DNA of 24,000 nt from Chitinophaga pinensis (lineage in GTDB: Bacteria; Bacteroidota; Bacteroidia; UKL13-3). Both the position numbers and the translations under genes were made by a program. Below the pieces are notes generated by a model. It made no database searches, was not told the DNA's origin, and saw only the letters and a program-made list of their open reading frames with translations. The stretch lies in NCBI GenBank assembly GCA_943372215.1, contig CALRXU020000010.1, positions 26,423 to 50,422 of the forward strand, read 5' to 3'. How positions within the stretch are numbered: the stretch's first letter is position 1; each line of letters starts with the position of its first letter. Shown here in pieces: positions 8,872 through 24,000 of this stretch.

Positions 8872-10080
8872 TTATTCGTAAAACATTTTTAGGTTTTTAA
8901 AATGTGCCAGGCCATACTTTCTTAATAAGCCGGCATCCAATTGTTGTAGTGAGTCAACTACCGATTTTTTGGTATAATCAAAAGCAAACAGTTCAATGAG
9001 GTAGGCATATTTATCTGCAATAACTTTCCAAGTATAACGCCTCTTTGCGATTTGCAACAGTTGGCTGCCAATCGCTTTTAAATTTGCTTTGTCGGTTTGT
9101 TGAATTACCTGAATAAGTTCATTTGCATCTTTAAAATAGAGGCAACTGTTTTCGGTGGTGGCCCTGTTGTATGATACATCAAAAGCAATTACAGGCAACT
9201 CTAAATACATGGCTTCTACCAAAGAAGGGTTGGTGCCGCCTGCACTATGGCCATGGATATAAACTGAGCAGTTGCTGCGCAAAATGTTCAACTCTTTTTG
9301 GTTATAAATAGGGTCAAGTAAAAACAAGTTTTTAAACGCGCTATACTTATTTTTTAATTCAACACCATAAGCACTGTTTTTCCAATTGCCTACTACCACC
9401 ATGTTTTGGTGAGGCAATTGGACAAATGCTTCCAGTACCAGGTGGATATTATTTTCGGGTTCGATGCGGCATACTTTAAAAGCATAAGGTTCATGTAGAA
9501 AGGGGTATTTTACTACAGCGGGAATATTTATAGCTTGTTTTTCGCAATGGTCAGCCCCATATTCAATAAGGTGGCTCAATGTTTTGTATTGAATGGCGGT
9601 GTAACGTTTAATGGCAGCATTGTCGGTAATATCCGCATCTGAATATTTTACAGCAAGTTTTTCTGATAAATGTAAAAACCATTTGGTGTACTTGTTCCAT
9701 TTGTCTCTTCTCCATTCCAAGCCATCAATATTTACAATTATTTTTTTTCTGGTAAATAGTTTAACCAGTGGCAATACAATACCCCCTGAAACGCCTAAAA
9801 TCAATAAGGTATCAGCATAAAACAAGGCGTGAATAATGGATACCATATCGTAAATAATGCTTTGCATGCCATTGGCGTTTAGCGGAAGATGAACCAAACG
9901 CGCTTTATTCCAGGTTGGAACACGCTCTTGTTTGCTGTAATATTTGTTGCTACAATACACGGTTAAGTCGTATTGCTCATTTAGGTTATTTACCAAATGA
10001 TGCGCCAGGGTTTCAAATCCGCCATATCTGGCAGGAACTCCTGCAGTACCTATTATTGCTACTTTTGTTTTCATGGGCAT
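8872..10080 (-). CDS. Family-1 (GT-B) glycosyltransferase with a DUF1972-type N-terminus
   Basis: The N-terminus VAIIGTAGVPARYGGFETLAHHL is typical of DUF1972 glycosyltransferases. The C-terminal GT1 core contains HGHSAGGTNPSLVEAM (E-x7-E-like region). An alternative ATG lies at 10074. The gene ends 12 nt upstream of the WecA-like gene. Confidence 0.75.
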   Translation of the reverse strand: MPMKTKVAIIGTAGVPARYGGFETLAHHLVNNLNEQYDLTVYCSNKYYSKQERVPTWNKARLVHLPLNANGMQSIIYDMVSIIHALFYADTLLILGVSGGIVLPLVKLFTRKKIIVNIDGLEWRRDKWNKYTKWFLHLSEKLAVKYSDADITDNAAIKRYTAIQYKTLSHLIEYGADHCEKQAINIPAVVKYPFLHEPYAFKVCRIEPENNIHLVLEAFVQLPHQNMVVVGNWKNSAYGVELKNKYSAFKNLFLLDPIYNQKELNILRSNCSVYIHGHSAGGTNPSLVEAMYLELPVIAFDVSYNRATTENSCLYFKDANELIQVIQQTDKANLKAIGSQLLQIAKRRYTWKVIADKYAYLIELFAFDYTKKSVVDSLQQLDAGLLRKYGLAHFKNLKMFYE

Positions 10081-10164
10081 TGTTTTGTTTATGAATGAAA
10101 CATCTGTTGTGCCAAATGTGCCAGGCGTTGTTTGGCGGCACTTTCAGGCTATTGTTGGTTTTAG

Positions 10165-10388
10165 GCTGTTCCCAAATCTGGAATTGTTTTCCAAGGTTTA
10201 AAGGATATGAACCAACAAGCCTAATCCTGTAAAAGAGTACCCATCATTGTACCTGCCTTTTACCGCATCTAGGTTACTGGACGTGGCCAAATGGTAGTTG
10301 TGTTCCATGCGGATGCCAATGGTTTTATTGACTTTATATACCAATTCAACCCCGAGGTTTAGGGTGGCATCTTTTCTGGGTGAAATGG
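10165..10388. repeat. Copy 1 of a diverged direct repeat of about 220 bp (3' end of the OMP gene plus downstream spacer); copy 2 is at about 10955..11168
   Basis: Hand alignment: ...cccaaatctggaattg...ggatatgaaccaacaagcctaatcctgtaaaag...ccatcattgtacctgccttttaccgcatctaggttac... recurs about 790 bp downstream. Identity is roughly 90% over the first 150 nt. Confidence 0.85.
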
Positions 10389-10878
10389 GATTCAAATCGG
10401 TATCGTATCCTTCCGCATTCTTATTTATGGGGCATTCAAAGTAATGTTGGGCACTCCTGTAGCTGATTAATCCAATGCCACAAATGCCATTGAGGCTAAG
10501 CCTATTGCTTTTATTAATAATGGGGAATATTACTGAAGTGCTAAGTTGCCAGAAGTTATTTTGAAACCATACTTCATAATCGGCTTTGGTCATATTGCGG
10601 ACTCCGTTTAGTGTTCCTTTAGTTAACCCAAAACGATAACAGATGCGCTGCTTGCAAGTTGTTTGTAACAATATTCCTGAGGTAGTACCAAAATCTTTTT
10701 TGCTGGTGGATTGGTCGGGTAAAATACCCTCTCGTTGTACATTACCATAAAACATGGTGTAACCAGCAGTTATGCCAATTGCCATTGTTGAAGGTTGTGT
10801 TTGGGTTTGCTGTGCTTGTGCACTTGCCATTAAGTACATAGCTGAAATAAGGAGGATGGATAGCTTTTTCATATTCAT
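10198..10878 (-). CDS. Outer-membrane beta-barrel protein (porin-family/OmpA-beta-barrel-like) with signal peptide
   Basis: Signal peptide MNMKKLSILLISAMYLMASAQAQ, alternating hydrophobic beta-strand pattern, and an aromatic-rich C-terminal strand (YSFTGLGLLVHIL). Confidence 0.7.
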   Translation of the reverse strand: MNMKKLSILLISAMYLMASAQAQQTQTQPSTMAIGITAGYTMFYGNVQREGILPDQSTSKKDFGTTSGILLQTTCKQRICYRFGLTKGTLNGVRNMTKADYEVWFQNNFWQLSTSVIFPIINKSNRLSLNGICGIGLISYRSAQHYFECPINKNAEGYDTDLNPISPRKDATLNLGVELVYKVNKTIGIRMEHNYHLATSSNLDAVKGRYNDGYSFTGLGLLVHIL

Positions 10879-10985
10879 GTTGTTTTATGCAACATCAACA
10901 TAGGGCGTGCCAAACGATAAAAGCCTTGTTTTACTGGGTTTTTATAGCCTTGGGTTGTTCCCAAATGTGGAATTGTTTCCAATGT

Positions 10986-11168
10986 TTAATGGATATGAAC
11001 CAACAAGCCTAATCCTGTAAAAGCATACCCATCATTGTACCTGCCTTTTACCGCATCTAGGTTACTTGACGTGGCCAAATGGTAGTTGTGTTCCATGTGG
11101 ATGCCAATGGTTTTGTTGATTTTATAAGCCAACCCCAGTTTAGGGTAACATCGTTTATGGGTGAAATG
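10986..11168 (-). pseudogene. Truncated, frameshifted 3' fragment of a paralog of the 10198..10878 OMP gene
   Basis: The reverse strand ends ...GLLVHIH-TAA, against ...GLLVHIL-TAA in the intact copy. Homology runs for about 180 nt into the coding region with 5-nt and 2-nt gaps, then stops abruptly near 11170. The ORF track has no minus-strand ORF of 60 aa or more here. Confidence 0.65.
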
Positions 11169-11233
11169 TACTTACCCTTAATCATGCACAACAATATTGT
11201 GCGTTTTTACACCATTAGAAAGTGTGTTTTTAC

Positions 11234-11241
11234 TATATTTG
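11234..11241 (+). promoter_or_regulatory. Candidate Bacteroidota -7 promoter box (TATATTTG) for the XRE-hsdR operon
   Basis: Exact TAnnTTTG match 28 nt upstream of the ATG at 11269. It is the only obvious promoter-like element between the OMP relic and the first island gene. Confidence 0.4.
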
Positions 11242-11268
11242 ACCTGTTAAAAATTTATTAGACTTCAA

Positions 11269-11457
11269 ATGAATAGAATTAAAGAAGTTCTGAAAGAAAA
11301 AGGCATCTCACAAACTTGGCTGGCGAAACAGTTAGACAAAAGCTATAACACGATTAACGGGTATGCCCGAAATGTGAGACAACCAAGTATTGAGGATTTG
11401 TATCGCATTGCTAAAATTCTGGATGTTAACGCCAAAGATTTATTGAAAGAAGAATAA
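11269..11457 (+). CDS. XRE-family helix-turn-helix protein (62 aa), candidate controller of the R-M operon
   Basis: Canonical HTH_3 pattern: GISQTWLAKQLDKSYNTINGYARNVRQPSIEDLYRIAKILDV. Its stop overlaps the hsdR start (TAATG). Confidence 0.8.
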   Translation: MNRIKEVLKEKGISQTWLAKQLDKSYNTINGYARNVRQPSIEDLYRIAKILDVNAKDLLKEE

Positions 11458-14400
11458 TGAGTAAAGAGAACCAAATAGAAGAAAATCTTATAGAGCAACT
11501 AAAAGGGCTAAAATATCTTTATCGTCCCGATATAGTTGATAGGAAAACGCTTGAGCAAAACTTCAAAACAAAATTTGAAGCACTTAACCGTGTTCGTTTG
11601 TCAGACAATGAATTTTTGCGATTAAGAGAAGAAATTATTAAACCTGATGTATTTGCAGCATCTAAGTTTTTGCGCGAAAGACAATATTTTCAGCGTGAAG
11701 ATGGAACGCCATTACATTACACTTTAGTTAATACAAAAGAATGGTGCAAAAACGATTTTGAAATAATTAACCAACTTAGGGTTAATACCGAAAACAGCCA
11801 CCAACGATACGATATTATTTTGCTTTTAAATGGTTTGCCTTTGGTTCAAGTTGAACTGAAAAAAGTGGATGTTTCCCCAAGGAAAGCCATGCAGCAAATT
11901 GTTGAATATAAAAACGAACCTGGCAATGGTTATGGAAACTCTTTGCTTTGTTTTATGCAGCTTTTTATTGTAAGCAATGGAGGTAGAACGCTTTATTTTG
12001 CCAATAATAAAAACCAACACTTTGCTTTTAATGCCGATGAGCAATTTTTACCTGTATATGAACTGGCAGATAAGGACAACAAAAAAATTAGTGGCTTACA
12101 TGATTTTGCTGAAAAATTCTTAACCAAGTGTACACTTGGCGAAATGATTAGTAAATACATGGTTTTGGTAGAAAGCGAACAAAAACTGTTAGTGATGCGC
12201 CCTTACCAAATTTATGCCGTAAAAGCCATTGTAGATTGTATAAAAGACAATAGAGGTAACGGCTATATTTGGCACACTACAGGAAGTGGTAAAACACTTA
12301 CTTCGTTTAAAGCATCTACTTTATTAAAAGACAATCCTGATATTGAAAAATGTTTGTTTGTGGTGGATAGAAAAGACCTTGACCGACAAACACGCGAGGA
12401 GTTCAATAAATTTCAAGAGGGAAGTGTGGAAGAAAACACCAATACCGAAACATTGGTAAGGCGATTATTATCTACCGACTATGCCGATAAGGTAATAGTT
12501 TGTACCATTCAAAAATTAGCTTTAGCAATTGATAGTACTAATAGCCGTAACTATTTTGAGCGATTAGCACCTCTAAGAAATAAAAAAATAGTATTCATTT
12601 TTGATGAGTGCCACCGTTCTCAATTTGGACAAAACCATAAAGCAATTACTAAGTTTTTCCACAACGCTCAACTTTTTGGTTTTACTGGTACTCCAATATT
12701 TTCTGATAATGCTAATTACAGTTATATTGAAGGGCAAGAAGCTACTTTAAAAACCACTGTTGATATTTTTGAAAAGGAATTACATGCTTACACTATAACG
12801 CATGCCATTGAGGATAAAAATGTATTGCGTTTCCATATAGATTATTACAAAGGAAAAGGCACCCAAAATGTTAAAGCGGGTGAACCTATTGCCCAACAAG
12901 CAGTAGTGGAAGCCATTTTAGATAAACACAATGCAGCCACCAATCAAAGGCGATTTAATGCTACATTGGCAACTGCTTCAATAAACAATGCCATTGAATA
13001 TTATAGGCTTTTTAAAGAAATGCAAATTCTTCGTAAGGCTCAGGATGCTGAATATGTGCCTTTGAATATAGCCTGCGTATTTTCGCCACCAGCGCAACTT
13101 ATAGCCAAAGAAGGCGACCAAAAAAGCCAGAAAAATGCTGATGATATAAAACAACTGCAAGAGGATTTAATTCAGGAAAAAGAAGACAACAAACAAAATC
13201 CTGATGAAAAGAAAGAGGCTTTGATGCAAATTATTGCAGATTATAATTTGCAATATGGTACAAACCATACCATAAACGAGTTTGACTTGTATTACCAAGA
13301 TTTACAAATACGTATAAAAGACCAAAAATATAGCAATAAAGACTATCCACATAAAAACAAAATAGATATTACCATAGTGGTAGATATGTTGCTTACGGGT
13401 TTCGATTCTAAGTATTTGAATACTTTGTATGTAGATAAAAACCTAAAATACCATGGGTTAATTCAAGCATTTTCGCGCACTAACCGTGTGCTTAATGATA
13501 CCAAACCTTATGGCAATATTTTAGATTTCCGTTCGCAAAAAGAGGAAGTAAACAAAGCCATTGCCTTGTTTTCTGGCCAAGATAATAACAGTGCAAAAGA
13601 AATTTGGTTGGTTGACCCTGCTCCTGTAATGATTGAAAAATACCAAAAAGCAGTAGAAGCTTTGGGTGTATTTATGCAAGAACATAATTTGTTAAACGAA
13701 CCGCAAGAAGCTTATAACTTAAAAGGCGATGCCGCACGAATAGCATTTGTTAAAAACTTTAAGGAAATACAACGCTTAAAAACACAACTAGACCAATATA
13801 CAGACTTAAACGAAGGGCAGGTTGATTTAATTGAAGCCATTTTACCAAATGAAACTTTATTAGAATTTAGAAGCTCATACATAGAAACGGCTAAACAGCT
13901 AAGAACAATACAGCAAAAAGAGGGCGACCAAGCACCTACCGAAATTCAACAATTGGATTTTGAGTTTGTGCTGTTTGCTTCTGCGGTAATTGATTACGAC
14001 TACATTATGAACCTGATTGCTGACAGTACCCAACAAAAATCTGTTAAGCAAAAAATGACCAAGGCACAAGTAATTAGTTTACTAAGTGCCAATGCCAACT
14101 TAATGGATGAGCAGGAAAATTTAACTGAATATATTAATAGCTTAGACTGGAACAAAGGGCAAGATGTAAATGCTTTAACCAAAGGTTACGAAATTTTTAA
14201 AGTAGAAAAAAACGATAAGGAATTAACGGACATAGCCCACAAACATGGATTGCAAACAGCAGACTTGAAAGCCTTTGTAGAAGAAATAATGAGCCGAATG
14301 ATATTTGATGGTGAAAAATTAACTGACTTGTTAGAACCATTAGAATTAAGTTGGAAAGAACGCAGGGTAAAAGAATTGGCTTTAATGGTAGACTTAGTAC

Positions 14401-14459
14401 CACAATTAAAAAAACTGGCCGAAGGGCGGGAAATATCAGGATTAGCAGCTTATGAGTAA
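11457..14459 (+). CDS. hsdR: Type I restriction endonuclease, R subunit
   Basis: N-terminal PD-(D/E)xK-type region (YDIILLLNGLPLVQVELKK), SF2 helicase motif I (HTTGSGKT) and motif II (FIFDECHRSQ), motif VI-like QAFSRTNR, and a length of 1000 aa. Confidence 0.95.
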   Translation: MSKENQIEENLIEQLKGLKYLYRPDIVDRKTLEQNFKTKFEALNRVRLSDNEFLRLREEIIKPDVFAASKFLRERQYFQREDGTPLHYTLVNTKEWCKNDFEIINQLRVNTENSHQRYDIILLLNGLPLVQVELKKVDVSPRKAMQQIVEYKNEPGNGYGNSLLCFMQLFIVSNGGRTLYFANNKNQHFAFNADEQFLPVYELADKDNKKISGLHDFAEKFLTKCTLGEMISKYMVLVESEQKLLVMRPYQIYAVKAIVDCIKDNRGNGYIWHTTGSGKTLTSFKASTLLKDNPDIEKCLFVVDRKDLDRQTREEFNKFQEGSVEENTNTETLVRRLLSTDYADKVIVCTIQKLALAIDSTNSRNYFERLAPLRNKKIVFIFDECHRSQFGQNHKAITKFFHNAQLFGFTGTPIFSDNANYSYIEGQEATLKTTVDIFEKELHAYTITHAIEDKNVLRFHIDYYKGKGTQNVKAGEPIAQQAVVEAILDKHNAATNQRRFNATLATASINNAIEYYRLFKEMQILRKAQDAEYVPLNIACVFSPPAQLIAKEGDQKSQKNADDIKQLQEDLIQEKEDNKQNPDEKKEALMQIIADYNLQYGTNHTINEFDLYYQDLQIRIKDQKYSNKDYPHKNKIDITIVVDMLLTGFDSKYLNTLYVDKNLKYHGLIQAFSRTNRVLNDTKPYGNILDFRSQKEEVNKAIALFSGQDNNSAKEIWLVDPAPVMIEKYQKAVEALGVFMQEHNLLNEPQEAYNLKGDAARIAFVKNFKEIQRLKTQLDQYTDLNEGQVDLIEAILPNETLLEFRSSYIETAKQLRTIQQKEGDQAPTEIQQLDFEFVLFASAVIDYDYIMNLIADSTQQKSVKQKMTKAQVISLLSANANLMDEQENLTEYINSLDWNKGQDVNALTKGYEIFKVEKNDKELTDIAHKHGLQTADLKAFVEEIMSRMIFDGEKLTDLLEPLELSWKERRVKELALMVDLVPQLKKLAEGREISGLAAYE

Positions 14460-15702
14460 AAAGGATTTAATACCTGAATTGCGTTTTCCTGAGTTTAAGA
14501 ATAATGGGGAATGGGAACTTACATCAATTGGTGAAATCGGTAATTTTTACTACGGTAAAAGTGCCCCAAAATGGTCATTATCGGAAGAAGCCTCAACACC
14601 TTGTGTAAGATATGGCGATTTATACACTAAATTCGACACTATCATTTCTGAAATTAAATCTCGAACTAATATTGAGCCAAGCAATTTGAAGTTTAGTAAA
14701 GGGGGTGAAATATTAGTTCCTCGTGTTGGCGAACGTGCAACTGACTTTGCAAAAAACTGTTGTTACTTACCATTTTCAAATATTGCGATTGGTGAAATGA
14801 TAAGTGTTTTTGAAACAAAAGAATTCCCATTATTCTATACACATTACTTTAGAACACTTTGGAAAGAATTTGCTGAAGTTGTTGAAGGCCAAAATGTAAA
14901 AAATTTATACTTCGTAAACCTTGAGCCTATTAAAATAGGAAAAACATCCTATGCTGAACAACAAAAAATAGCCTCATGTCTTTCATCTTTAGATAAAGTA
15001 ATTGCTGCCGAAAGCCAAAAGTTAGATTTACTCAAAGAACACAAAAAAGGCTTGATGCAAAACCTTTTTCCTCAAGAGGGTGAAAAAGTGCCTAAGTATC
15101 GGTTTAAAGAGTTTGAGAAAGATGGGGAGTGGGTGGAGAAGAAGTTGGGGGAAGTGGGAGAATTTTTAGGTGGAGGAACTCCAAGCAGAACAAATAGTGA
15201 ATATTGGACAGGAAATATACCTTGGATTTCAAGTTCTGATATTAATGAAAACGATGTTCATAGCATTTCAATATCTCAATACATAAATGAAATTGCAATT
15301 ATTGAATCGGCAACTAAAATAATTCCCAAAGGAAGTGTTCTATTCGTTTCAAGAGTTGGGGTCGGCAAATTAGCAATCAATAATGAAGAGCTTTGTACAA
15401 GCCAAGATTTTACAAGTTTCATTCCTACAGAAGTTTTAAATTTATTTGTTGCTTATTATTATTTATCAAATAAAAATGCGTTACAATCTTTAAGTCAAGG
15501 TACATCAATTAAAGGCTTTTCAAAAAGCGATTTGGAAGACTCAAAAATAGGATTCCCAAGGAACCCCAAAGAACAGAAAAAAATCGCTAGCTGTCTTTCT
15601 TCCTTAGATGCACTTATTACTGCACAAGCGGAAAAAATAGAACAGTTGAAGTTGCATAAAAAGGGATTGATGCAGGGCTTGTTTCCAAAAATAAATGATT
15701 AA
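14452..15702 (+). CDS. hsdS: Type I restriction-modification specificity subunit (two TRDs)
   Basis: Start LRFPEF..EWE, then a second TRD start YRFKEFEKDGEWVEKKLGEV. The conserved coiled-coil region is duplicated (QQKIASCLSSLDKVIAAESQKLDLLKEHKKGLMQNLFP and EQKKIASCLSSLDALITAQAEKIEQLKLHKKGLMQGLFP). The gene overlaps hsdR by 8 nt (ATGAGTAA). Confidence 0.95.
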   Translation: MSKKDLIPELRFPEFKNNGEWELTSIGEIGNFYYGKSAPKWSLSEEASTPCVRYGDLYTKFDTIISEIKSRTNIEPSNLKFSKGGEILVPRVGERATDFAKNCCYLPFSNIAIGEMISVFETKEFPLFYTHYFRTLWKEFAEVVEGQNVKNLYFVNLEPIKIGKTSYAEQQKIASCLSSLDKVIAAESQKLDLLKEHKKGLMQNLFPQEGEKVPKYRFKEFEKDGEWVEKKLGEVGEFLGGGTPSRTNSEYWTGNIPWISSSDINENDVHSISISQYINEIAIIESATKIIPKGSVLFVSRVGVGKLAINNEELCTSQDFTSFIPTEVLNLFVAYYYLSNKNALQSLSQGTSIKGFSKSDLEDSKIGFPRNPKEQKKIASCLSSLDALITAQAEKIEQLKLHKKGLMQGLFPKIND

Positions 15703-15705
15703 AAT

Positions 15706-16800
15706 ATGAGTACAGTTATAGAAATAGCAGAGGATCTAAAAGGAACAAAAGAAAATATAATCCTTATTTATGCTTTTAATGCAACAGGCAAAACTCGTCT
15801 TTCAGTTGAATACAAAAACATTACTAAAAATCCTAATAATGGCGAACATGCGGGTGTTTACTACAATGCTTTTAGTGAAGATTTGTTTGTTTGGGATAAT
15901 GATAATCCAAATGGGGAAAAAAATATCAAACTCGACATTAAATTCAGTAGTTTAAATAGTTTACACAATTTAATGACGGAAGAAGATGTTGAAAAAAAGT
16001 TAATTCCTTACAAAAGGAAATATAACTTCTATTTTAACTCTAATAAAGACCTTGAGAAAGGTTATGATTCGATAGCATTTTATAAAATAGACGATAAAGA
16101 AAGTAAAACTCCTATTAAAATTTCGAGAGGTGAAGAAAGGATATTTGTTTGGTGTTTCTTTCTGGCTCTTTTAGAAGTTGAAGGTTGGGCAGACACACAA
16201 AATGCACACTTCTTTATTGATGACCCTGTTTCAAGTTTGGATGACCACAATATTTTTGTGACTGCTTACACCGTTTTTGACTTAATTGAACGTGAATTTG
16301 AAAAAAGAAAAATTATTATTACTTCGCATCACTTTGGTTTTCTAACCATTTTATCTGATATGCTTGGCAAAGGTGATAAAGCTGATAAATTTAGAAACAG
16401 AGATAAATCCAAAAAATATAAAGAATTTATATTAGAAGGCAATGGAGAAGATTTATCATTAGTTAAAACTAAAAATGGAGTATTTCTTTACCATTTGAGA
16501 TTGCTTCAAATCTTAAATCAAGCTGCCGAATCGAATAACGTTTACACTTATCACTTTGCACTTTTGAGGCAAGTGCTTGAAAATGTTGCATCATTTCTTG
16601 GTGTTGGTCAATTCAGTTATGTTTTGGAACAAATCGGAATCAATGACAAAGAAAGAGTTGCTTTCATTGTGAATGCACTTTCACATTTGAATGTTTATTA
16701 CCAACAAATCGACAAGCCTGTTCCAGATAATTTAGAATTGTTCAATGAGGTTTTAAGTAGGTTGATGAACAAATATCGTTTCTTAATACCTAAAGATTAA
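15706..16800 (+). CDS. prrC: PrrC-like anticodon nuclease (ABC/AAA_13-type ATPase N-domain plus C-terminal R-x3-E...H nuclease motif)
   Basis: P-loop AFNATGKT (aa 23-30), YYNAFSEDLFVWDND, signature-like ISRGEERIF, Walker B/D-loop HFFIDDPVSSLDD, and H-loop IITSHH. The C-terminal R288-x3-E292 (LLRQVLEN) and H327 (NALSHLN) sit at the same distance from the C-terminus as the Arg320/Glu324/His356 triad I recall for E. coli PrrC (396 aa). The gene is embedded in a type I R-M operon, 3 nt after hsdS. Confidence 0.65.
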   Translation: MSTVIEIAEDLKGTKENIILIYAFNATGKTRLSVEYKNITKNPNNGEHAGVYYNAFSEDLFVWDNDNPNGEKNIKLDIKFSSLNSLHNLMTEEDVEKKLIPYKRKYNFYFNSNKDLEKGYDSIAFYKIDDKESKTPIKISRGEERIFVWCFFLALLEVEGWADTQNAHFFIDDPVSSLDDHNIFVTAYTVFDLIEREFEKRKIIITSHHFGFLTILSDMLGKGDKADKFRNRDKSKKYKEFILEGNGEDLSLVKTKNGVFLYHLRLLQILNQAAESNNVYTYHFALLRQVLENVASFLGVGQFSYVLEQIGINDKERVAFIVNALSHLNVYYQQIDKPVPDNLELFNEVLSRLMNKYRFLIPKD

Positions 16801-16807
16801 AAACGAA

Positions 16808-16840
16808 ATGACAAATAAAGACCAACAACAATTAATTTAA
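16808..16840 (+). repeat. Relic copy of the hsdM 5' end (ATGACAAATAAAGACCAACAACAATTA..., mini-ORF MTNKDQQQLI*)
   Basis: Positions 16808..16834 match the real hsdM start at 17502..17528 (ATGACACAAAAAGACCAACAACAGTTA) at 24 of 27 positions in the same orientation. The two copies bracket the 211-aa gene. Confidence 0.7.
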
Positions 16841-16853
16841 TTGGTAAAATACA

Positions 16854-17489
16854 ATGGCGAGTAAAAGGGTAACAAAACATAAATTTATTAATGAATTAGT
16901 GGAATACGAACGAAACCCTCTAACGGGTAATTTTAATATTTTAGTTATTGGCACATTCAATCCGGCAATTGAAAGGAATAAAGCCAACTGGTTTTATGGG
17001 AGATCGGCAAGTGAGTTTTGGTATTTATTACCCAAAGCATTAAATTTTGATAGCCTTTATCCATCTGATATTGGAGTGAAAATAGAGGATGTTCATACAA
17101 AACAGAAAGCATTTTGCAAGGAGCAAAAAATTGTAATTGTTGATGTGTTTAAAAAAGTAAACATTAAATTGGATGGATATAGGGATAACGAATTACATAC
17201 ATTAGAAGAAAATCAATTTGAAGGATTTGATTATAAAAAAGCATTTGGTGAAGCCAACTTTAAGCTAGTTGCATTTACTTGGAAAACTAAAACTAAAAGC
17301 CATAGGCAAAATAAAATAAGAGAATCAATCATTGCCTTTTTTGCAGGTAAAGGAGTTCCTTGTTTATTGCTTGATTCGCCATCACCATCCCATCAAATTG
17401 GCAGGTACGATAAACTCACAAATTGGCAAGAATCCTTTGAGCCATATTTGGATAGGCTCAAGTTAGTAAAACCAAAATTAGACATATAA
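16854..17489 (+). CDS. Uracil-DNA-glycosylase-superfamily-like protein (MUG/family-6-like motifs); candidate DNA glycosylase
   Basis: Motif 1: ILVIGTFNPAIERNKANWFYGRSASEFWYLL (compare MUG VGINPG...F....NRFW..L and family-6 GSxPS...YY...N.FW). Mid region: IVIVDVFKKVNIKLDGYRDNEL (compare family-6 ..WDV......GSLDS.I). Motif 2: LLLDSPSPSHQ (compare LPNPSGLS and LPSTSPAN). The comparison sequences are recalled from memory, not searched. Confidence 0.5.
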   Translation: MASKRVTKHKFINELVEYERNPLTGNFNILVIGTFNPAIERNKANWFYGRSASEFWYLLPKALNFDSLYPSDIGVKIEDVHTKQKAFCKEQKIVIVDVFKKVNIKLDGYRDNELHTLEENQFEGFDYKKAFGEANFKLVAFTWKTKTKSHRQNKIRESIIAFFAGKGVPCLLLDSPSPSHQIGRYDKLTNWQESFEPYLDRLKLVKPKLDI

Positions 17490-17501
17490 TTACTGAAGGA
17501 T

Positions 17502-19160
17502 ATGACACAAAAAGACCAACAACAGTTAGGTAAAACCCTTTGGGATATAGCAGATAACTTACGTGGAGCAATGAACGCGGATGATTTCCGTGATTATATG
17601 CTTTCGTTTCTTTTTTTAAGGTATTTGTCTTACAACTACGAAGAGGCAGCAAAGAAAGAACTGGGAAAAGATTATCCTGAAACAACCGACAATCTCGTAA
17701 AAGATTTTGGTGTAACTACCCCACTTCAATTGTGGTATGAAAGTAATTTAGATGAAATAGCTGAATTTGAAAAACAAATGCGCAGAAAGGTGCATTATGT
17801 TATTGAACCAAGTCATTTGTGGAGCAATATCACTGAAATGGCTCGTACACAAGACTCAGAGTTATTGGTTACACTTGAATCGGGCTTTAGGTATATAGAG
17901 AATGAATCTTTTGCAAGTGCATTTCAAGGCTTGTTTTCTGAAATTAATTTGAATTCTGAAAAACTTGGGAAAACACCAGTAGAAAGAAACAAGAAACTTT
18001 GCACCATCATTCAGAAAATTGCGGAAGGTATTGCAGATTTTTCTGCTGATTCCGACACACTTGGCGATGCTTACGAATATTTAATTGGCGAATTTGCAGC
18101 AGGCTCAGGCAAAAAAGCAGGTGAATTTTATACGCCTCAACAAATATCTAAAATATTATCTAAAATAGTAATATTAGATAGTCAGGACCCGACAACTGGG
18201 CCAAAACTAAAGTTAGATAGAGTACTTGATTTTACATGTGGTTCAGGTTCATTATTGCTAAATATACGAACGCAATTAAAAAAAGCAACTAAAAGCAAAG
18301 GAACAATAGGCAAAATTTACGGACAAGAAAAAAACATTACCACCTATAACCTTGCCCGGATGAACATGCTTTTGCATGGCATGAAAGACACCGAGTTTGA
18401 AATTTTTCATGGAGATACTTTAGAGAATCAATGGCCTCTGCTTAATGAAATGAACCCAAGTAAAAAGATGGAGTTTGATGCCATTGTAGCCAATCCGCCA
18501 TTTAGTTTACGTTGGGAACCAACTGATGTACTGGCAGAAGATTTTCGTTTTAAAAGTTATGGTTTAGCACCTAAATCAGCCGCGGATTTTGCTTTTTTAT
18601 TACATGGTTTTCATTTTTTAGGGAAAGAAGGAACCATGGCCATTATTTTACCACATGGAGTTTTGTTCCGTGGTGGAGCAGAGGAACGTATTAGAACCAA
18701 ATTGCTAAAAGACAATCATATTGATACGGTCATTGGTTTACCTTCAAACTTATTTTACTCAACAGGTATTCCAGTCAGCATTTTAATTTTGAAAAAGTGC
18801 AAAAAACATGATGATGTTTTATTCATTAACGCAAGTGAACGCTATGAAAAAGGGAAACGCCAAAACACGTTAAGAGATGGAAAAGAAGCAGGAGAACGCA
18901 ACGATATTGATGATATTGTAAACACCTATAAAAACCGTCCAGATTACATTGAGCGTTACGCACGCAGGGTGTCAATGGACGAAATAGAAAAGAATGGTTA
19001 TAACTTAAACATTTCAAGGTATGTAAGCACCTCCATTGATGAAGTAAAAATTGATTTGAAAGAGGTGAATGAAAAATTGACTGAAATAAATAAAAGTATA
19101 AAAGTGAATACAGACAAACACAATAAATATCTAAAAGAGTTAGGATTGAATTTAATTTAA
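17502..19160 (+). CDS. hsdM: Type I restriction-modification N6-adenine DNA methyltransferase subunit
   Basis: HsdM N-terminal domain (LWDIADNLRGAMNADDFRDYMLSFLFLRYLS), AdoMet motif I (VLDFTCGSGSLLL), catalytic motif IV (IVANPPFS), and GEFYTP. Confidence 0.95.
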   Translation: MTQKDQQQLGKTLWDIADNLRGAMNADDFRDYMLSFLFLRYLSYNYEEAAKKELGKDYPETTDNLVKDFGVTTPLQLWYESNLDEIAEFEKQMRRKVHYVIEPSHLWSNITEMARTQDSELLVTLESGFRYIENESFASAFQGLFSEINLNSEKLGKTPVERNKKLCTIIQKIAEGIADFSADSDTLGDAYEYLIGEFAAGSGKKAGEFYTPQQISKILSKIVILDSQDPTTGPKLKLDRVLDFTCGSGSLLLNIRTQLKKATKSKGTIGKIYGQEKNITTYNLARMNMLLHGMKDTEFEIFHGDTLENQWPLLNEMNPSKKMEFDAIVANPPFSLRWEPTDVLAEDFRFKSYGLAPKSAADFAFLLHGFHFLGKEGTMAIILPHGVLFRGGAEERIRTKLLKDNHIDTVIGLPSNLFYSTGIPVSILILKKCKKHDDVLFINASERYEKGKRQNTLRDGKEAGERNDIDDIVNTYKNRPDYIERYARRVSMDEIEKNGYNLNISRYVSTSIDEVKIDLKEVNEKLTEINKSIKVNTDKHNKYLKELGLNLI

Positions 19161-19265
19161 GAACAAGATGTATTTGTAACCACAGAAAGCCTTGATTTAC
19201 TGGTGTTTACAAGTGATAGCTGTAAAAAGGCTATTCCTGATTTTGGAAATGAATTCCTATAAAAA

Positions 19266-19304
19266 CCAAAGCGGCTGTTTCAACAATTGAAACAGCCGCT
19301 TTGG
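19266..19304. terminator. Bidirectional intrinsic terminator between convergent hsdM and the large secreted-protein gene
   Basis: Perfect hairpin ccaaagcggctgtttcaa-caa-ttgaaacagccgctttgg (18-bp arms). An A-run lies upstream (aaaaa) and a T-rich tract downstream (tattggtttt). Confidence 0.8.
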
Positions 19305-19326
19305 CAATATTGGTTTTAACAATTAA

Positions 19327-22300
19327 TTATTCAATCAATATTTTTTCTGTGTAAACAGCACCGTTGTTATCCATTACTTTCAGGTAGTACTTGCCTGGTT
19401 TAAGGTTGGTTTTATCCAAGCTTACTTCCTCTGCAAATACTTGTTCTTGCTTGTACACTTCAATGCCTGTTTCGGTGTAAATAACGCATGCGCTAATTAA
19501 GCCCTTATCAGTTTCTGCCAGCTTCATTAACTTAACCACTGTATTGTTAGAAACTGGATTTGGGTAAACACTCAGGTATCGGCTATCACTGTTAAAGTAA
19601 CTAATTACATGCGTTAATTTATTGGTAATTACTGGTTCTTCATAATCAAAAACAATGGCTGCCTGATTATCAATTGCAGTACCTTCAGGTAAATGTGCAT
19701 TTGGCAAAATGGTGTATTCTACAAACCCATGGCTTCCTGCTTCATCAGTGGTACTATCAGGTAAGTTGATGTTTTCAAAAATGAAGGTTAAATCGTTACC
19801 ACTAATTTCATAGCGCATCAGGTGACTTGCCCTTTTCACTTTAAACGTATTCATGTCTAAGTCGCTTGGAATTGTATTGAATAACCTTGCGATATACACT
19901 GGCGCTGAACCCACATTTTGAAACCTGATGCGGTAAGTTAATTCCTGATCATGTGCAATAAACCTGTTTTTTCCAATTGGGTCTGGATTGGCTATAATGT
20001 CATTTGGATCAATTGGGCCAGTAATTGGAGCAATAAGCAGCTTGGTATTATCAAGCGGGTTTAAATCATTGTTGTTGGTAATGGTAGCCGAAATGTTAAC
20101 CAAAGTACCCGTTGGTTTGGTCAGGTTTACTGAATCAACCAAGGTAATGGTTTGCACACTTCCTTCTGGAATGGCAGTGATGTTCCAAGTATAGGTGTTT
20201 CCAGATTTAATGCTCCATGGTGTACTTGCTGATACCAATATAATGGATGGGTCAAGGGTAAGGGTAATTACTTCAAAACTTCCCGCAAGAGTGCCTTTGT
20301 TTCCATAAGTTAGTAGCATATCATTTTTAAAACCACGCCTTAACGAAGTTGCATCTACATCAACAAACAAATCTTTGCCAGCACTTGCAGGAACCAATCC
20401 AAAATTGCGGTTGGTAAACGTTTGCGCAGCAGCAGTTACGGAGATGGCATGTCCGCCATTTGCAGCAGGAGCTGATTGACTCCAGTATAATGGAGACTCT
20501 TGAGTAATGGTGTAATTGCCAACAGCAGGGTACACGGCAAAACTGTAATTACCATTGTTATCTGTATAAGTAACCGTTGCACCATTGGCTTTAACTTTTA
20601 CATTGGCAATGCCGTTTTCTCCGGCATCTTTTGTGCCGTTGTTGTTTTTGTCATTAAACACCACACCCGAAGCAGTGGAGTGATTATCCTCTGTTAGTAC
20701 CAAAAATTTATTGCAAGCCTGGTTGGTTACTTTTTTAGTTAAACCCGATGGCCATTTAATCACTATCGAATCAATTACCGAGGCATCACCTAAACCAAAT
20801 ACGGCAGCCATTTCGTCTTGGCTTCCAAAACCGCTGTTGCTAATCATTTCACGCATTTGAGTAATTCTTGTACCATTGATTAAAGCCGTTACATAAACCC
20901 TTGCTCCAATGGCATTTTTATTTGATGCAGTTCCCGTTAATTTGATGTTTATCCATTTGTTGGTATTGCCATTATTGGTAAAAAACATGTTTTTATTTTT
21001 GCCATGTGTAGCAATAAACACATCCTGGTCTCCATCTTTGTCATAATCGCACCAAGCTGTGCCAAATGTTTCTCCGCTTGCAGCAATAATAGGGTCTTTA
21101 ACCACTTTGGTAAATGTGCCATTGCCATTATTTTTGTATAAAAACTTAGCTTGGTTGCCATCATTGGCCACAAACAAATCTAACCAGCCATCGTTATCAA
21201 AGTCAACCCAATTGCAACCATGCGAGTTGCCTTTGTCGGTGGCAATTTCTCCAGTTAAAATTCGGGTAAAAGTACCATTGCCGGCATTGTTGTATAAAAA
21301 GTTAACTTCATTGGATGCATTGCTTACAAACAAATCCAGGTCTCCGTCATTGTCATAATCTCCCCAGCAGCTTGCTGTGGAGTTTCCTCCATCAGTTACT
21401 GGCCTGCCAGTAGTTATTTTTGTAAATGAGCCATTGCCATTGTTTTTAAACAACGCATTATTTTGGTTGCCTATATTTTCTGGTCCTCCACCATTCGGAA
21501 TAAACACATCTTGCCAGCCATCATTGTCATAATCAGCCCAAGTTGCGCCAATGGCATAATTCTGGTGTTGGGCAAGCTCATTGTTTAATACGCGGGTAAG
21601 CACCCCACTTCCATCATTGTGGTATAACCTGCAAAATGAAGTAGGCAAGAATTCTGAAACAAACAAATCCAACTTGCCATCTTTGTCATAATCCACCCAA
21701 TTGGTGCCATGTGCATAACCATTATCATCAGTAGCATCTATGCCATTTAGTTTGCCAAATCCTGTGGTTAAATTTTTAAACAGGTTTGATGTTTTGCCCA
21801 AGTTATTTGCGGTGTAAATATCTATCCTGCCATCATTGTCATAATCAGCCACACCCGATGAAACAGTGGATACATAATAATTACTTACGGCAACATTACC
21901 CGTTGTAATTTTGGTGAGTTTGGCATTACCATCGTTGCGGTATAAAATGTTGCCAAGGTTTTTGTTGTACACACTAATGTATAAATCTTGGTCATTGTCG
22001 TTGTCGTAATCAAACCATGCGCCATTCCAGGTATCAATGCTATCTGCAACTACATCACCTGTAGTAAGTTTGGTGAAATAAAAATTGGAGGTGTTGGCCG
22101 CATTATTGGTAATCCCTTCCGATGATGATGATTGCTGAGTAACCCCATTTACAGTGCCGCTAATAATCGTTTCAACAGAAACAACCGTATTGTTGGGAAT
22201 GGGTGTGCCATCATTGTAAGCAGTGTTTAGCTCTACTTTAGTAACTACTTGGTATTGTTTGGTTGGGTCTAAATTGGGTTCGTTGCTAAAAGTAATGGTG

Positions 22301-24000
22301 CTGTTTCCATTGCTTGTGCTAATGGTGCCTTGGTTGGTTTGGTTATTGGTGGCATTAACCAACGTTGACGAAATGGGTGTTGCACCATCTCCAACAAGTA
22401 CGGTAACATCGGTGTTGGTTACCGGGTAACCAGGTGTAATGACAAGGTTTGAAACCACAGTAACCGTATCACCAGGTTTTGCAGTATTGCTTGATGATGA
22501 TGAGGTTTGTTTAAAGTCCTGAACAAGAGAAGTACCAAAATACATCATCCAATTGTCGTTAAAATTGGTGGTCATTACAGAAACCTCATCCGTTGACTCC
22601 ACCAATAGATATGGCCTTTCTGGGCCAGCAGCAGTGGTTCCTGTGCCATTGTATATTTTTCTCCATTCTGTCAAATCAAGCGCACAATCCACGTAACGCC
22701 CAGCCAACATATTGTATGTTCTGTTAATATCTGCACCATTGGTATAGGCATCTTTAACCGTAACCGTGCAGTTGTTTTTTGCGAATAAATAAGCATGGGT
22801 AAATTGGCCATTATACTTTAATCCCGTTGCAGGGTTGGTTACATTGTTTTCGTTTCCGGGAGGAGCCATGTACACCAAAAATTTATTGCCTGCGCAAGTT
22901 CCAAACTCGCTTGATACCATAGTGGCAATATCTGAAGTACCGGGTGAGCCAGTCTCTAACCAGTTGGCCTCAAAAACAGAAACTTTTTTACCAGCAGTAC
23001 ACCTTACCCTGAACACCGTTGGGAAAGTTTGTCCAGCGGTTTTGCCAATCCAATCCGCAGCTTTCAGTTTATTCAGTGGATTGTAGTTTTGTAAATTAAC
23101 CCATGTGCCGTTATTGTAACGTTCTAACACCACCGCATTGTTATCATCCCAAGATACTATCCGTATTTCTTGCTCAGTAGTAACTTGATAAGGTACGGTG
23201 AAATAGAACAACTCACCAGCAGAGCTTCCATTGGATGAAGGTACGTATCCTCCTCCATCTCTTTCATTGCCAAACAATGCACCATATTGTACGGTTACTG
23301 ATTTGCTCGTTTCAATAATATACGTGTGGCCAGTAATTAATAAGTTTCGGGCTTCGGTGTAAAAGTGTATCAGGTCTTGCCCACGACTAATCATTTTTTG
23401 TAATACGACTTCGTTGTTGCCTGCATCCACAGTAGTGTAACCTTGCGCAGTTAATGCAACCGTTGATATTTTACGTACCGTAACCATGGTAGAATCTTCA
23501 TAGGCCATTACATTAATATCGCGGTTTGACGAAGTAACTTTGGGTGCGTAAACAATAAACTTTTGCCCTAACGATGATTTATTGGTAGAAGGTAACCAAT
23601 CATGTTGCCAATCCGAATCCGTTGATTGTGATGCATACACAATGTTGTTGGATGTGATGATAAAGTAATCACCATCTTGTTTGGTAGCACTTTCATTGCT
23701 GTGAGGTGCATCATCATTTACACCATTGTTTCTAATGTAAAGTACATACGATTGTCCGGCCATTAACATGCCTGTTTTGGTATCGTCCCAATCACCATCG
23801 GCACTATCATCTTTAATGGTAAAATACGTACTATCATAAATGGCGGTAACAATTAAGCACACATCCCGCGATACTTTATCGTTATTAGGTGGGACAAAAA
23901 TGTTAAAATACGTGGATGGCTCTCCTGTAGCCATCGCACGCTGAATGGGTATCATGCAAATAAGCATGAGTACGAGTAGAGGGAATGTAATTTTATTCAT
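19327..24000 (-). CDS. Large secreted FG-GAP/VCBS-repeat plus ASPIC/UnbV-type protein with SdrD-B-like and DUF11-like Ig folds and a T9SS C-terminal sorting domain
   Basis: The ATG falls exactly at 23998-24000, followed by a signal peptide (MNKITFPLLVLMLICMIPIQRAMA). There are seven W/V-x-DYDNDG-x-x-D-[LIV]-[FY] repeats, an UnbV-like block (NKNAIGARVYVTA...SGFGSQDE...FGLG), and an SdrD-B-like block (FNDKNNNGTKDAGENGIANVKVKA...TDNNGNYSF). The C-terminus (LSVYPNPVSNNTVVKL...GKYYLKVMDNNGAVYTEKILIE) is typical of Por/T9SS tails. Confidence 0.85.
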   Translation of the reverse strand: MNKITFPLLVLMLICMIPIQRAMATGEPSTYFNIFVPPNNDKVSRDVCLIVTAIYDSTYFTIKDDSADGDWDDTKTGMLMAGQSYVLYIRNNGVNDDAPHSNESATKQDGDYFIITSNNIVYASQSTDSDWQHDWLPSTNKSSLGQKFIVYAPKVTSSNRDINVMAYEDSTMVTVRKISTVALTAQGYTTVDAGNNEVVLQKMISRGQDLIHFYTEARNLLITGHTYIIETSKSVTVQYGALFGNERDGGGYVPSSNGSSAGELFYFTVPYQVTTEQEIRIVSWDDNNAVVLERYNNGTWVNLQNYNPLNKLKAADWIGKTAGQTFPTVFRVRCTAGKKVSVFEANWLETGSPGTSDIATMVSSEFGTCAGNKFLVYMAPPGNENNVTNPATGLKYNGQFTHAYLFAKNNCTVTVKDAYTNGADINRTYNMLAGRYVDCALDLTEWRKIYNGTGTTAAGPERPYLLVESTDEVSVMTTNFNDNWMMYFGTSLVQDFKQTSSSSSNTAKPGDTVTVVSNLVITPGYPVTNTDVTVLVGDGATPISSTLVNATNNQTNQGTISTSNGNSTITFSNEPNLDPTKQYQVVTKVELNTAYNDGTPIPNNTVVSVETIISGTVNGVTQQSSSSEGITNNAANTSNFYFTKLTTGDVVADSIDTWNGAWFDYDNDNDQDLYISVYNKNLGNILYRNDGNAKLTKITTGNVAVSNYYVSTVSSGVADYDNDGRIDIYTANNLGKTSNLFKNLTTGFGKLNGIDATDDNGYAHGTNWVDYDKDGKLDLFVSEFLPTSFCRLYHNDGSGVLTRVLNNELAQHQNYAIGATWADYDNDGWQDVFIPNGGGPENIGNQNNALFKNNGNGSFTKITTGRPVTDGGNSTASCWGDYDNDGDLDLFVSNASNEVNFLYNNAGNGTFTRILTGEIATDKGNSHGCNWVDFDNDGWLDLFVANDGNQAKFLYKNNGNGTFTKVVKDPIIAASGETFGTAWCDYDKDGDQDVFIATHGKNKNMFFTNNGNTNKWINIKLTGTASNKNAIGARVYVTALINGTRITQMREMISNSGFGSQDEMAAVFGLGDASVIDSIVIKWPSGLTKKVTNQACNKFLVLTEDNHSTASGVVFNDKNNNGTKDAGENGIANVKVKANGATVTYTDNNGNYSFAVYPAVGNYTITQESPLYWSQSAPAANGGHAISVTAAAQTFTNRNFGLVPASAGKDLFVDVDATSLRRGFKNDMLLTYGNKGTLAGSFEVITLTLDPSIILVSASTPWSIKSGNTYTWNITAIPEGSVQTITLVDSVNLTKPTGTLVNISATITNNNDLNPLDNTKLLIAPITGPIDPNDIIANPDPIGKNRFIAHDQELTYRIRFQNVGSAPVYIARLFNTIPSDLDMNTFKVKRASHLMRYEISGNDLTFIFENINLPDSTTDEAGSHGFVEYTILPNAHLPEGTAIDNQAAIVFDYEEPVITNKLTHVISYFNSDSRYLSVYPNPVSNNTVVKLMKLAETDKGLISACVIYTETGIEVYKQEQVFAEEVSLDKTNLKPGKYYLKVMDNNGAVYTEKILIE
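21000..22030 (-). repeat. Seven tandem FG-GAP/calcium-binding (DxDxDG) coding repeats inside the large gene
   Basis: A recurring DNA motif cc(a/g)tc(a/t)ttgtcataatc appears at about 21036, 21345, 21520, 21676 and 21830, with diverged copies near 21190 and 22000. Spacing is roughly 150-310 nt. Confidence 0.8.

Follow-up and report, generated by a model that had tools for sequence, protein, structure and literature searches.

A UDG-superfamily protein encoded within a type I restriction-modification operon of Chitinophaga pinensis: a candidate defence glycosylase from a rare family that recurs in such operons

Antiviral DNA glycosylases were recognised only in 2024-2026 (Brig1, Brig2, Brig3 and Dag1/2), from functional screens or structure-guided searches. 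Brig1, which has a uracil-DNA glycosylase (UDG) fold, defends by excising alpha-glucosyl-5-hydroxymethylcytosine (PMC11078745). A second such protein, Brig2, has a UDG-like fold and counters phages whose thymidines are modified (bioRxiv 10.1101/2025.10.29.685425). Defence genes can also be embedded in type I restriction-modification (R-M) operons, as are the type IV genes tgvAB, which complement the type I enzyme by acting on phages with modified DNA that it fails to restrict (PMC11411939). Here we analysed a 24,000-nucleotide stretch of Chitinophaga pinensis DNA (contig CALRXU020000010.1; the window), in which a type I R-M operon contains a gene for a 211-residue protein, ORF211. Our best reading is that it is an accessory defence gene product of the operon, probably a monofunctional DNA glycosylase that belongs to the UDG superfamily and works as Brig1 or Brig2 do.

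ORF211 is an open reading frame (ORF) of 211 codons that runs from ATG to stop at positions 16854-17489 of the forward strand in the ORF list of the window. The complementary strand is closed in the same frame by numerous stops, and the protein is identical to P0157 of the protein collection. The original prediction had placed the gene between prrC and hsdM and had likened its product, by eye, to UDG families 2 and 6. The coordinates and flanking genes are confirmed, and the residues named in the prediction are all in place: G33-T-F-N36-P37, F47-YGRSASEFW56, V96-DVF99, D107-GYRDNE113 and D174-SPSPSH180.

No Pfam family matches ORF211 at E up to 0.1, nor does any PADLOC model. The sole curated match is the NCBIfam model TIGR04274 (hypoxanthine-DNA glycosylase, HDG), which is below threshold at 17.9 bits and E 0.0025. 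When ORF211 was used as a single sequence to search the Protein Data Bank (PDB), the sole match was 2L3F (E 0.045), a Methanosarcina acetivorans protein solved by structural genomics and labelled "putative uracil DNA glycosylase". The profile of 62 family members matches the same entry at E 4.7e-11, with D. radiodurans MUG next at E 0.37. With these values the resemblance to the UDG superfamily is beyond chance. TIGR04274 is matched by 39 of the 62 relatives (best E 2.2e-15), and the distant members P0135 (76.8 bits) and P0092 (31.9 bits) pass the Pfam UDG model PF03167, which has a cut-off of 24.3.

An AlphaFold2 model of ORF211, calculated from a small alignment, has a pLDDT of 89.3, a pTM of 0.88 and a beta-alpha-beta order. 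The structure comparison that had been proposed as a check returned a UDG fold. The top Foldseek match in the PDB is 2L3F (E 5e-6, TM 0.66 on the target), followed by E. coli MUG (E 1e-3 to 5e-3), G. metallireducens SMUG1 (E 3e-3) and other SMUG1 entries. Of the five most significant PDB matches, three are MUG entries and the other two are 2L3F and SMUG1, all with probabilities of 0.98-1.00, and unrelated Rossmann-like folds come later, at much lower probability. The assignment to the UDG-superfamily alpha/beta fold is therefore secure, with family 6 as the nearest branch and families 2 and 3 after it.

The reference for family 6 is the HDG of M. barkeri, together with TIGR04274 (equivalog cut-off 80 bits) and PDB entry 2L3F; members excise hypoxanthine and lack uracil activity. 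Motif 1 of this family is of the G-S-L-P-S type, without a catalytic Asn or Asp, and that of family 2 is G-I-N-P-G with a water-positioning Asn (PMC5387724). Family 6 gives ORF211 its best structural and sequence match, and both contain a Y-G-x-x-x-[N]-x-F-W block, the same D-V-F-K, another conserved Asp and a motif 2 with P-S. However, ORF211 is not a member of the curated family 6. Its score is far below the 80-bit cut-off, its motif 1 reads G-T-F-N-P, with an extra and nearly invariant Asn, and S53 takes the place of the Asn of N-x-F-W. It also has some 45 more residues, with helices at both termini, and is found in bacterial defence loci, whereas HDG is found in archaeal repair. Family 2 (MUG/TDG; E. 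coli Mug, 1MUG/1MTL, and the D. radiodurans enzyme, 2C2P) provides the second-best structural match, but identity in the structural alignments is 12-13% and motif 2 is unlike P-N-P-S-G-L-S-R. Membership of the curated family 2 is likewise not supported, as neither PF03167 nor TIGR00584 (mug) matches ORF211 at E up to 0.1. What stands of the proposed likeness is that families 6 and 2 are the nearest relatives; membership does not, given the curated thresholds and a motif 1 unlike that of family 6.

Like Brig1, ORF211 is small, stands alone, belongs to the UDG superfamily and has defence genes around it, and the mode of action proposed for it is base excision from modified phage DNA. It does not belong to the Brig1 family. 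Aligned by hhalign to the Brig1 sequence (from the supplement of PMC11078745), a 21-member alignment of the ORF211 family gave E 0.5 over 6 columns, and Brig1 is absent from the Foldseek PDB list of ORF211. The nearest fold to Brig1 is that of family 4 (S. tokodaii UDG; PMC11078745), in contrast to families 6, 2 and 3 for ORF211, and glycosylase activity has been shown for Brig1 only. Brig2 was compared by its published description. It resembles ORF211 in having a UDG fold, an A/T-rich setting, mobile or defence genes nearby and a distribution over several phyla including Bacteroidota. Brig2 differs in that its homologues are mainly from Pseudomonadota (735), with few from Bacteroidota (32), whereas the ORF211 family is mainly from Bacteroidota, and in that it comes from integron cassettes and not from a type I operon. 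The R.PabI-type restriction glycosylases also use base excision, as the restriction step of an R-M system, but they have a half-pipe fold, are sequence-specific and are blocked by cognate methylation (PMC10273834). Nothing in the 211-residue UDG domain of ORF211 suggests sequence specificity.

The family is real but rare and uncurated. A word-indexed search of 5.8 billion proteins found five relatives of ORF211, and a HMMER scan of 1.84 billion cluster representatives with the profile of these five gave 199 matches at E <= 1e-3, of which 14 were at E <= 1e-30. Two members are named "G:T/U-mismatch repair DNA glycosylase" by IMG, after COG3663 Mug. Genomes that carry members are mostly Bacteroidota, with a few Helicobacteraceae. 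No relatives were found in the BFVD viral structures, in 50,697 phage records or in 72,556 plasmids.

To collect genomic loci, we scanned the JGI metagenome contigs and a single genome for each GTDB species with a degenerate DNA pattern encoding N-x3-W-[FY]-Y-G-R-x4-F-W. The family hidden Markov model confirmed 71 of the matching ORFs, and additional loci were added through exact-protein look-ups. Neighbouring genes were annotated by Pfam and by phmmer, with the window and confirmed operons as seeds. The pattern matches L005/L089 (one viral contig), L006, L010, L012, L014 and L031 were rejected as chance matches that encode no family member.

The conserved elements of ORF211 are situated as follows.

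16950-16964, forward strand: motif 1, G33-T-F-N36-P37, in which N36 is the candidate water-positioning residue.
16995-17021, forward strand: Y48-G-R-S-A-S53-E-F55-W56 block, with Y48 aligned to the base-stacking F30 of MUG and S53 to the Asn of N-x-F-W.
17142-17153, forward strand: D97-V-F-K100, where strand beta-2 ends; its counterpart in 2L3F is W-D-V-F-K, and D97 is invariant in the 62 relatives.
17184-17186, forward strand: D111 in the loop after beta-2, invariant in the 62 relatives and with an Asp counterpart in 2L3F.
17376-17405, forward strand: motif 2 loop, S175-P176-S177-P-S-H-Q-I-G-R184.

The DNA pattern fixes positions 42, 46-50 and 55-56 in its own loci. Because it imposes these residues on the locus set, conservation there was judged from the HMMER-derived alignments, which are independent of the pattern and in which G33, Y48, W56, D97 and D111 are invariant or nearly so. 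The 62-member alignment shows no variation at T34 and F35, which occur in 51/56 and 53/56 proteins of the locus set; G33 is invariant. N36 is present in at least 90% of the 62 relatives and, in the locus set, in all 14 proteins of the window's clade and 34 of the 42 elsewhere. P176 is found in at least 90% of relatives, and S177 and R184 are each found in 13 of the 14 proteins of the window's clade. Position 53 is Asn in 41 of 56 proteins and Ser in 15, the latter including the window and its closest relatives. The earlier remark on Ser at the position of the family-6 Asn of N-x-F-W was correct, and most relatives keep the Asn.

In the HMMER alignment to 2L3F, N36 is a one-residue insertion opposite G-S-L-P-S. 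An hhalign alignment with E. coli MUG (E 0.017, probability 2.6%) pairs N36-P37 with N18-P19, Y48 with F30, S53 with N35 and F55-W56 with F37-W38, and in this weak pairwise alignment the Asn and the F-W are 20 residues apart in both proteins. Since the pairwise statistics are weak, the equivalence of N36 with N18 of MUG is a lead only. If it holds, N36 would occupy the position of the family-2 catalytic Asn. N36 is better conserved than the Asn of N-x-F-W (N39 of 2L3F in our counting), which we take to be the catalytic Asn of family 6. As a further lead, D97 or D111 may be the equivalent of Asp93 of D. radiodurans MUG (2C2P).

In a neighbour-joining tree, the window lies in a clade of about 16 independent loci, 10 of which are inside type I R-M operons. 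The arrangements are given below, where X is the family member.

Window: R-S-PrrC-X-M.
L098/99: R-S-[SLFN_AlbA_2/HATPase_c_4]-[ParA-like]-X-M.
L001, L008, L075 and L102: M-S-X-R.
L049 and L050: M-S-small ORF(s)-X-R.
L070: M-S-X-eight cargo genes-R.
L065: M-S-X-PDDEXK_4...
P0007 contig (window's clade): X before a GmrSD_N gene.
L046 (window's clade): X after a block of RE_endonuc, N6_N4 methylase, UvrD and AbiC genes.
L103 (window's clade): X beside Mrr_cat and MmeI genes.
L007 and L018 (different clade): hsdM-hsdS-X, then two GmrSD-family genes.
L071 (different clade): X-hsdR.
L077 and L017 (different clade): X, then a Piwi-domain protein, then a DpnII/MboI-type nuclease-domain protein, on one strand.

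Within the window's clade, L004 (beside ftsK) and L100 have no defence neighbours, and two contigs are too short to judge. Together with L007, L018 and L071, the ten operons of the window's clade make 13 non-redundant type I R-M operons with a family member. The end of the gene overlaps the start of hsdR by 4-34 nt in six loci (L001, L008, L049, L050, L075 and L071; overlap measured by the first-start-codon rule), an arrangement that is typical of translational coupling. The family shows the features of an accessory gene: it is on the same strand as the hsd genes, inside the hsd array, and recurrent in independent operons. The proposal that the location in an R-M operon is not accidental gains support from this recurrence and from the other defence genes beside relatives, and it fits the precedent of Brig1.

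Modification-dependent nucleases of the GmrSD family adjoin the family member or share its operon in L007, L018, L049 and the P0007 contig. This can be compared to TgvAB, a GmrSD-type type IV system in the VPI-2 type I R-M operon of V. cholerae (PMC11411939), where accessory genes likewise lie between hsd genes; in L007, L018 and the P0007 contig the family member is directly upstream of the GmrSD-type genes. TgvAB proteins are DUF262/DUF1524 nucleases, whereas ORF211 has a predicted glycosylase fold and the window contains no GmrSD gene.

Several of these islands contain further genes. The eight cargo genes of L070 (5177-12618) split the type I operon between the family member and hsdR, and include an RVT_1 reverse transcriptase, a dNK/thymidylate-kinase-like gene, a GreA/B-C-terminal-like gene and a divergent sigma-54 activator. 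In L077 (321-4363), the Piwi-domain protein, a prokaryotic Argonaute, has 689 residues and the DpnII/MboI nuclease-domain protein 361. Genes in which DUF8426 is joined to a NucS_C or Mrr_cat nuclease domain recur close to members in two unrelated islands (L001, 6350-7255; L103, 3681-4718).

The operon of the window and its surroundings are composed of the following features.

11269-11457, forward strand: gene for a 62-residue XRE/HTH_3 protein (Pfam HTH_3, E 1.2e-12), its end abutting the hsdR start.
11457-14459, forward strand: hsdR, type I restriction subunit, type IC-like, 1000 residues (Pfam, TIGR00348 and PADLOC).
14452-15702, forward strand: hsdS, specificity subunit, 416 residues (Pfam Methylase_S in two stretches; PADLOC Specificity_I, E 7e-103).
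15706-16800, forward strand: prrC, anticodon-nuclease-type guardian, 364 residues (PADLOC PrrC, E 1.4e-103).
16806-16853, forward strand: 48-nt leader 5' of ORF211, conserved with ORF211 in L098/L099 (blastn).
16854-17489, forward strand: ORF211, 211 residues, UDG superfamily; its family is uncurated and a relative of family 6 (HDG).
17502-19160, forward strand: hsdM, methyltransferase subunit, 552 residues (Pfam N6_Mtase, E 2e-99, and HsdM_N; TIGR00497, E 6e-111).
19265-19305, no strand assigned: hairpin with a perfect 19-bp stem and T-runs, 3' of hsdM.

The order hsdR-hsdS-prrC-ORF211-hsdM is unbroken on one strand, with no terminator-like site on the forward strand between 11457 and 17489. 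ORF211 starts 53 nt after prrC and ends 12 nt before hsdM; the 12-nt spacing is also present in L098/L099 and in the P0001 contig. HsdR contains the Pfam domains HSDR_N, SWI2_SNF2, T1R_D3-like and EcoR124_C, and scores E 4e-114 with TIGR00348 and 1072 bits with PADLOC REase_I. The G+C content is about 0.30 over prrC and ORF211, 0.34-0.36 in the hsd genes and 0.40 in the flanks. The dN/dS ratio of ORF211 is 0.27 against the L098 copy (90% identical) and 0.14 against L004 (67% identical), and with these ratios ORF211 is under purifying selection.

At the head of the operon, the 62-residue HTH_3 protein is a possible operon controller. It is preceded by a 60-residue ORF of no family (11079-11261, forward strand), and the two could be a C-protein-like controller or a small toxin-antitoxin pair; neither is conserved 5' of hsdR in L098. 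At the other end, the hairpin is likely to be the terminator of the operon, common to the convergent gene, which is on the reverse strand (19327-24000) and encodes an FG-GAP/ASPIC protein of 1557 residues with a type IX secretion system (T9SS) C-terminal sorting domain. This domain, like the taxonomy of the relatives, points to a Bacteroidota source.

The closest comparison is with L098/99, which carry P0156, 90% identical to ORF211 and in the same slot before hsdM. In L098 the place of prrC is taken by SLFN_AlbA_2/HATPase_c_4 and ParA-like genes. By blastn, homology between the window and L098 spans hsdR and the conserved parts of hsdS and ends at 15702; it restarts at 16806, six bases after the prrC stop, and continues through the leader, ORF211 and hsdM. 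Because the homology breaks and resumes at these points, prrC is swappable cargo and ORF211 a conserved part of the operon lineage. Nucleotide identity is 90-92% from about 16840 to 17620, a tract that comprises ORF211 and the first 120 nt or so of hsdM, and 57-88% further into hsdM. The synonymous divergence (dS) is 0.25 for ORF211 and 1.7-2.1 for hsdM and hsdR. The higher identity and lower dS mark a recent recombination tract, in which ORF211 and the 5' end of hsdM were exchanged between operons later than the rest.

L098 also contains a second UDG-superfamily gene (11357-12046, forward strand; PF03167, 26.3 bits), two genes after hsdM. Near it are an unannotated gene of 463 codons (9932-11323), a Holliday-junction-type endonuclease gene (12061-12627) and an Mrr_cat gene (15637-16353). 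Kinship with ORF211 was rejected, as the gene shows no similarity to the family of ORF211. It is a further candidate for a defence glycosylase.

Taken with the precedents of Brig1, Brig2 and TgvAB, the fold, the conserved residues and the genomic context suggest that ORF211 is an active defence glycosylase of the Brig kind, which would remove a modified base from invading DNA, and we give this reading a probability of about 0.5. We infer that the base would be flipped into a pocket formed by motif 1 (G33-T-F-N36-P), the stacking residue Y48, F55-W56 and the P176-S177...R184 loop, where N36, possibly with D97 and D111, would position a water molecule for N-glycosidic bond hydrolysis. The substrate would be a non-canonical base on invading DNA that type I enzymes handle poorly, and the resulting abasic sites would block replication or be cut by host apurinic/apyrimidinic endonucleases. 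Because the nearest characterised relative excises a purine, hypoxanthine, modified purines are no less plausible as targets than modified pyrimidines, and altered adenines or guanines merit the same attention as cytosines of the T-even type.

Several observations weigh against a defence glycosylase. A role against phages is, for any family member, a prediction from context, and adjacency alone does not show function, since defence genes cluster for many reasons. ORF211 itself carries Ser in place of the Asn of N-x-F-W. The approximately 35 remaining loci, all of non-core clades, are heterogeneous and often have housekeeping-like neighbours; ordinary neighbourhoods (FtsK, DprA, peptidases, TonB receptors) account for about two thirds of the wider family, in the non-core Bacteroidota clades. 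Because of these ordinary-looking neighbourhoods, the family as a whole may have a role in repair.

A more specific, and unlikely, version of the defence reading makes ORF211 a working accessory subunit of the type I enzyme. As the stop and start codons overlap, it would be made together with HsdR, and it would accompany the complex or work immediately in front of it. Blocking modified bases would be converted to abasic sites, or sensed, so that restriction is extended to hypermodified DNA in a "base-excision-assisted" type I system.

Another role that is possible but improbable is that of a repair glycosylase linked to the methyltransferase, following the logic of Vsr and Dcm. It would remove lesions at or near the methylated adenines flipped by HsdM, for example hypoxanthine from deaminated adenine or N6-methyladenine, and would protect the host chromosome rather than act on phage. 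The closest characterised relatives are indeed hypoxanthine-DNA glycosylases (PMC5387724, PMC8438529), the ORF211-hsdM block with its 12-nt gap is conserved in the window and L098/99, and many non-core relatives are in housekeeping-like neighbourhoods. However, the coupling is mostly to hsdR and not to hsdM, the GmrSD, MmeI, Argonaute and type III-like neighbours of other members share no methyltransferase, and the family is far too rare to serve a general need of type I systems. We also know of no evidence that N6-adenine methyltransferases promote the deamination of adenine.

It is similarly doubtful that ORF211 is a non-catalytic subunit with a UDG fold that serves the type I enzyme by binding DNA or bases. 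Its task might be to detect modified DNA, to modulate HsdR, or to be a decoy for anti-restriction proteins that mimic DNA and bind the DNA clefts of UDG-type proteins. The overlap with hsdR in six loci points to co-translation, perhaps also to a complex. W143, K144 and K187 are invariant surface-type residues of the window's clade that standalone clades lack, K100 and R184 occur in 13 of the 14 proteins of the clade, with one conservative K/R swap each, and the HDG-type Asn is Ser in the window. UDG-fold binders without turnover do exist, for example UdgX (PMC4787834). Against a binding role, N36, Y48, D97, D111 and the P-S loop are the most conserved in the family, and because these are the would-be active-site residues the pattern is that of an enzyme. 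In addition, the same gene at 67% identity occurs alone or beside quite different systems (L004, L103).

It is quite unlikely that ORF211 is a housekeeping-type MUG/HDG repair enzyme without a defence role, present incidentally in an insertion hot spot of type I operons. Type I operons do gather unrelated cargo, the closest copy outside an operon (67% identity) adjoins ftsK, and the IMG name of two members refers to mismatch repair. An incidental insertion does not readily account for the repeated placement in the same slot, in two layouts (M-S-X-R and R-S-cargo-X-M) and two separate clades, for the overlap with the hsdR start in six loci, or for the retention of ORF211 while neighbouring cargo is swapped; the family is also rare and patchily distributed.

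PrrC of the EcoprrI locus is, like ORF211, encoded within a type IC hsd operon, but it is an ATPase-anticodon nuclease that guards against inhibition of R-M (PMC12707154) and is unrelated to ORF211 in fold. The earlier suggestion that ORF211 is a regulator or sensor module for PrrC, to which its position directly downstream of prrC in the window had pointed, is largely refuted and now very improbable, because the 90%-identical copy of L098/99 keeps the ORF-hsdM block where prrC is replaced, with the break in homology between prrC and the leader, and because PrrC co-occurs with a member in the window and probably on the P0001 contig, which is near-identical, and is absent from the other member-bearing operons.

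Antiviral glycosylases as a kind are already known, as are the Mug-like IMG label of two members, the fold and the general idea. What appears to be new is a family without a Pfam, NCBIfam or PADLOC model, with a distinct G-T-F-N motif 1 on a scaffold like that of family 6, and the repeated occurrence of its members inside type I R-M operons, often in translational coupling. A literature search, with most subscription journals outside it, gave no paper on the family or on its type I placement, and nothing relevant was found on COG3663 in the defence literature.

If ORF211 is a defence glycosylase, it would represent a further UDG lineage in antiviral defence, unrelated in sequence to Brig1, close to the purine-excising family 6 and with a MUG-like Asn. 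The genomic signature of the family is very clear: the gene is embedded in type I R-M operons, often with translational coupling to hsdR. An active enzyme would be a new base-specific glycosylase for the detection of modified DNA, and a clean system in which to ask whether classical restriction and base excision cooperate. Should it be inactive, a conserved UDG-fold partner of HsdR would itself call for explanation. If it is active, the family points to a phage base modification, possibly of a purine, that is countered in Bacteroidota, a phylum whose phage DNA chemistry is little studied.

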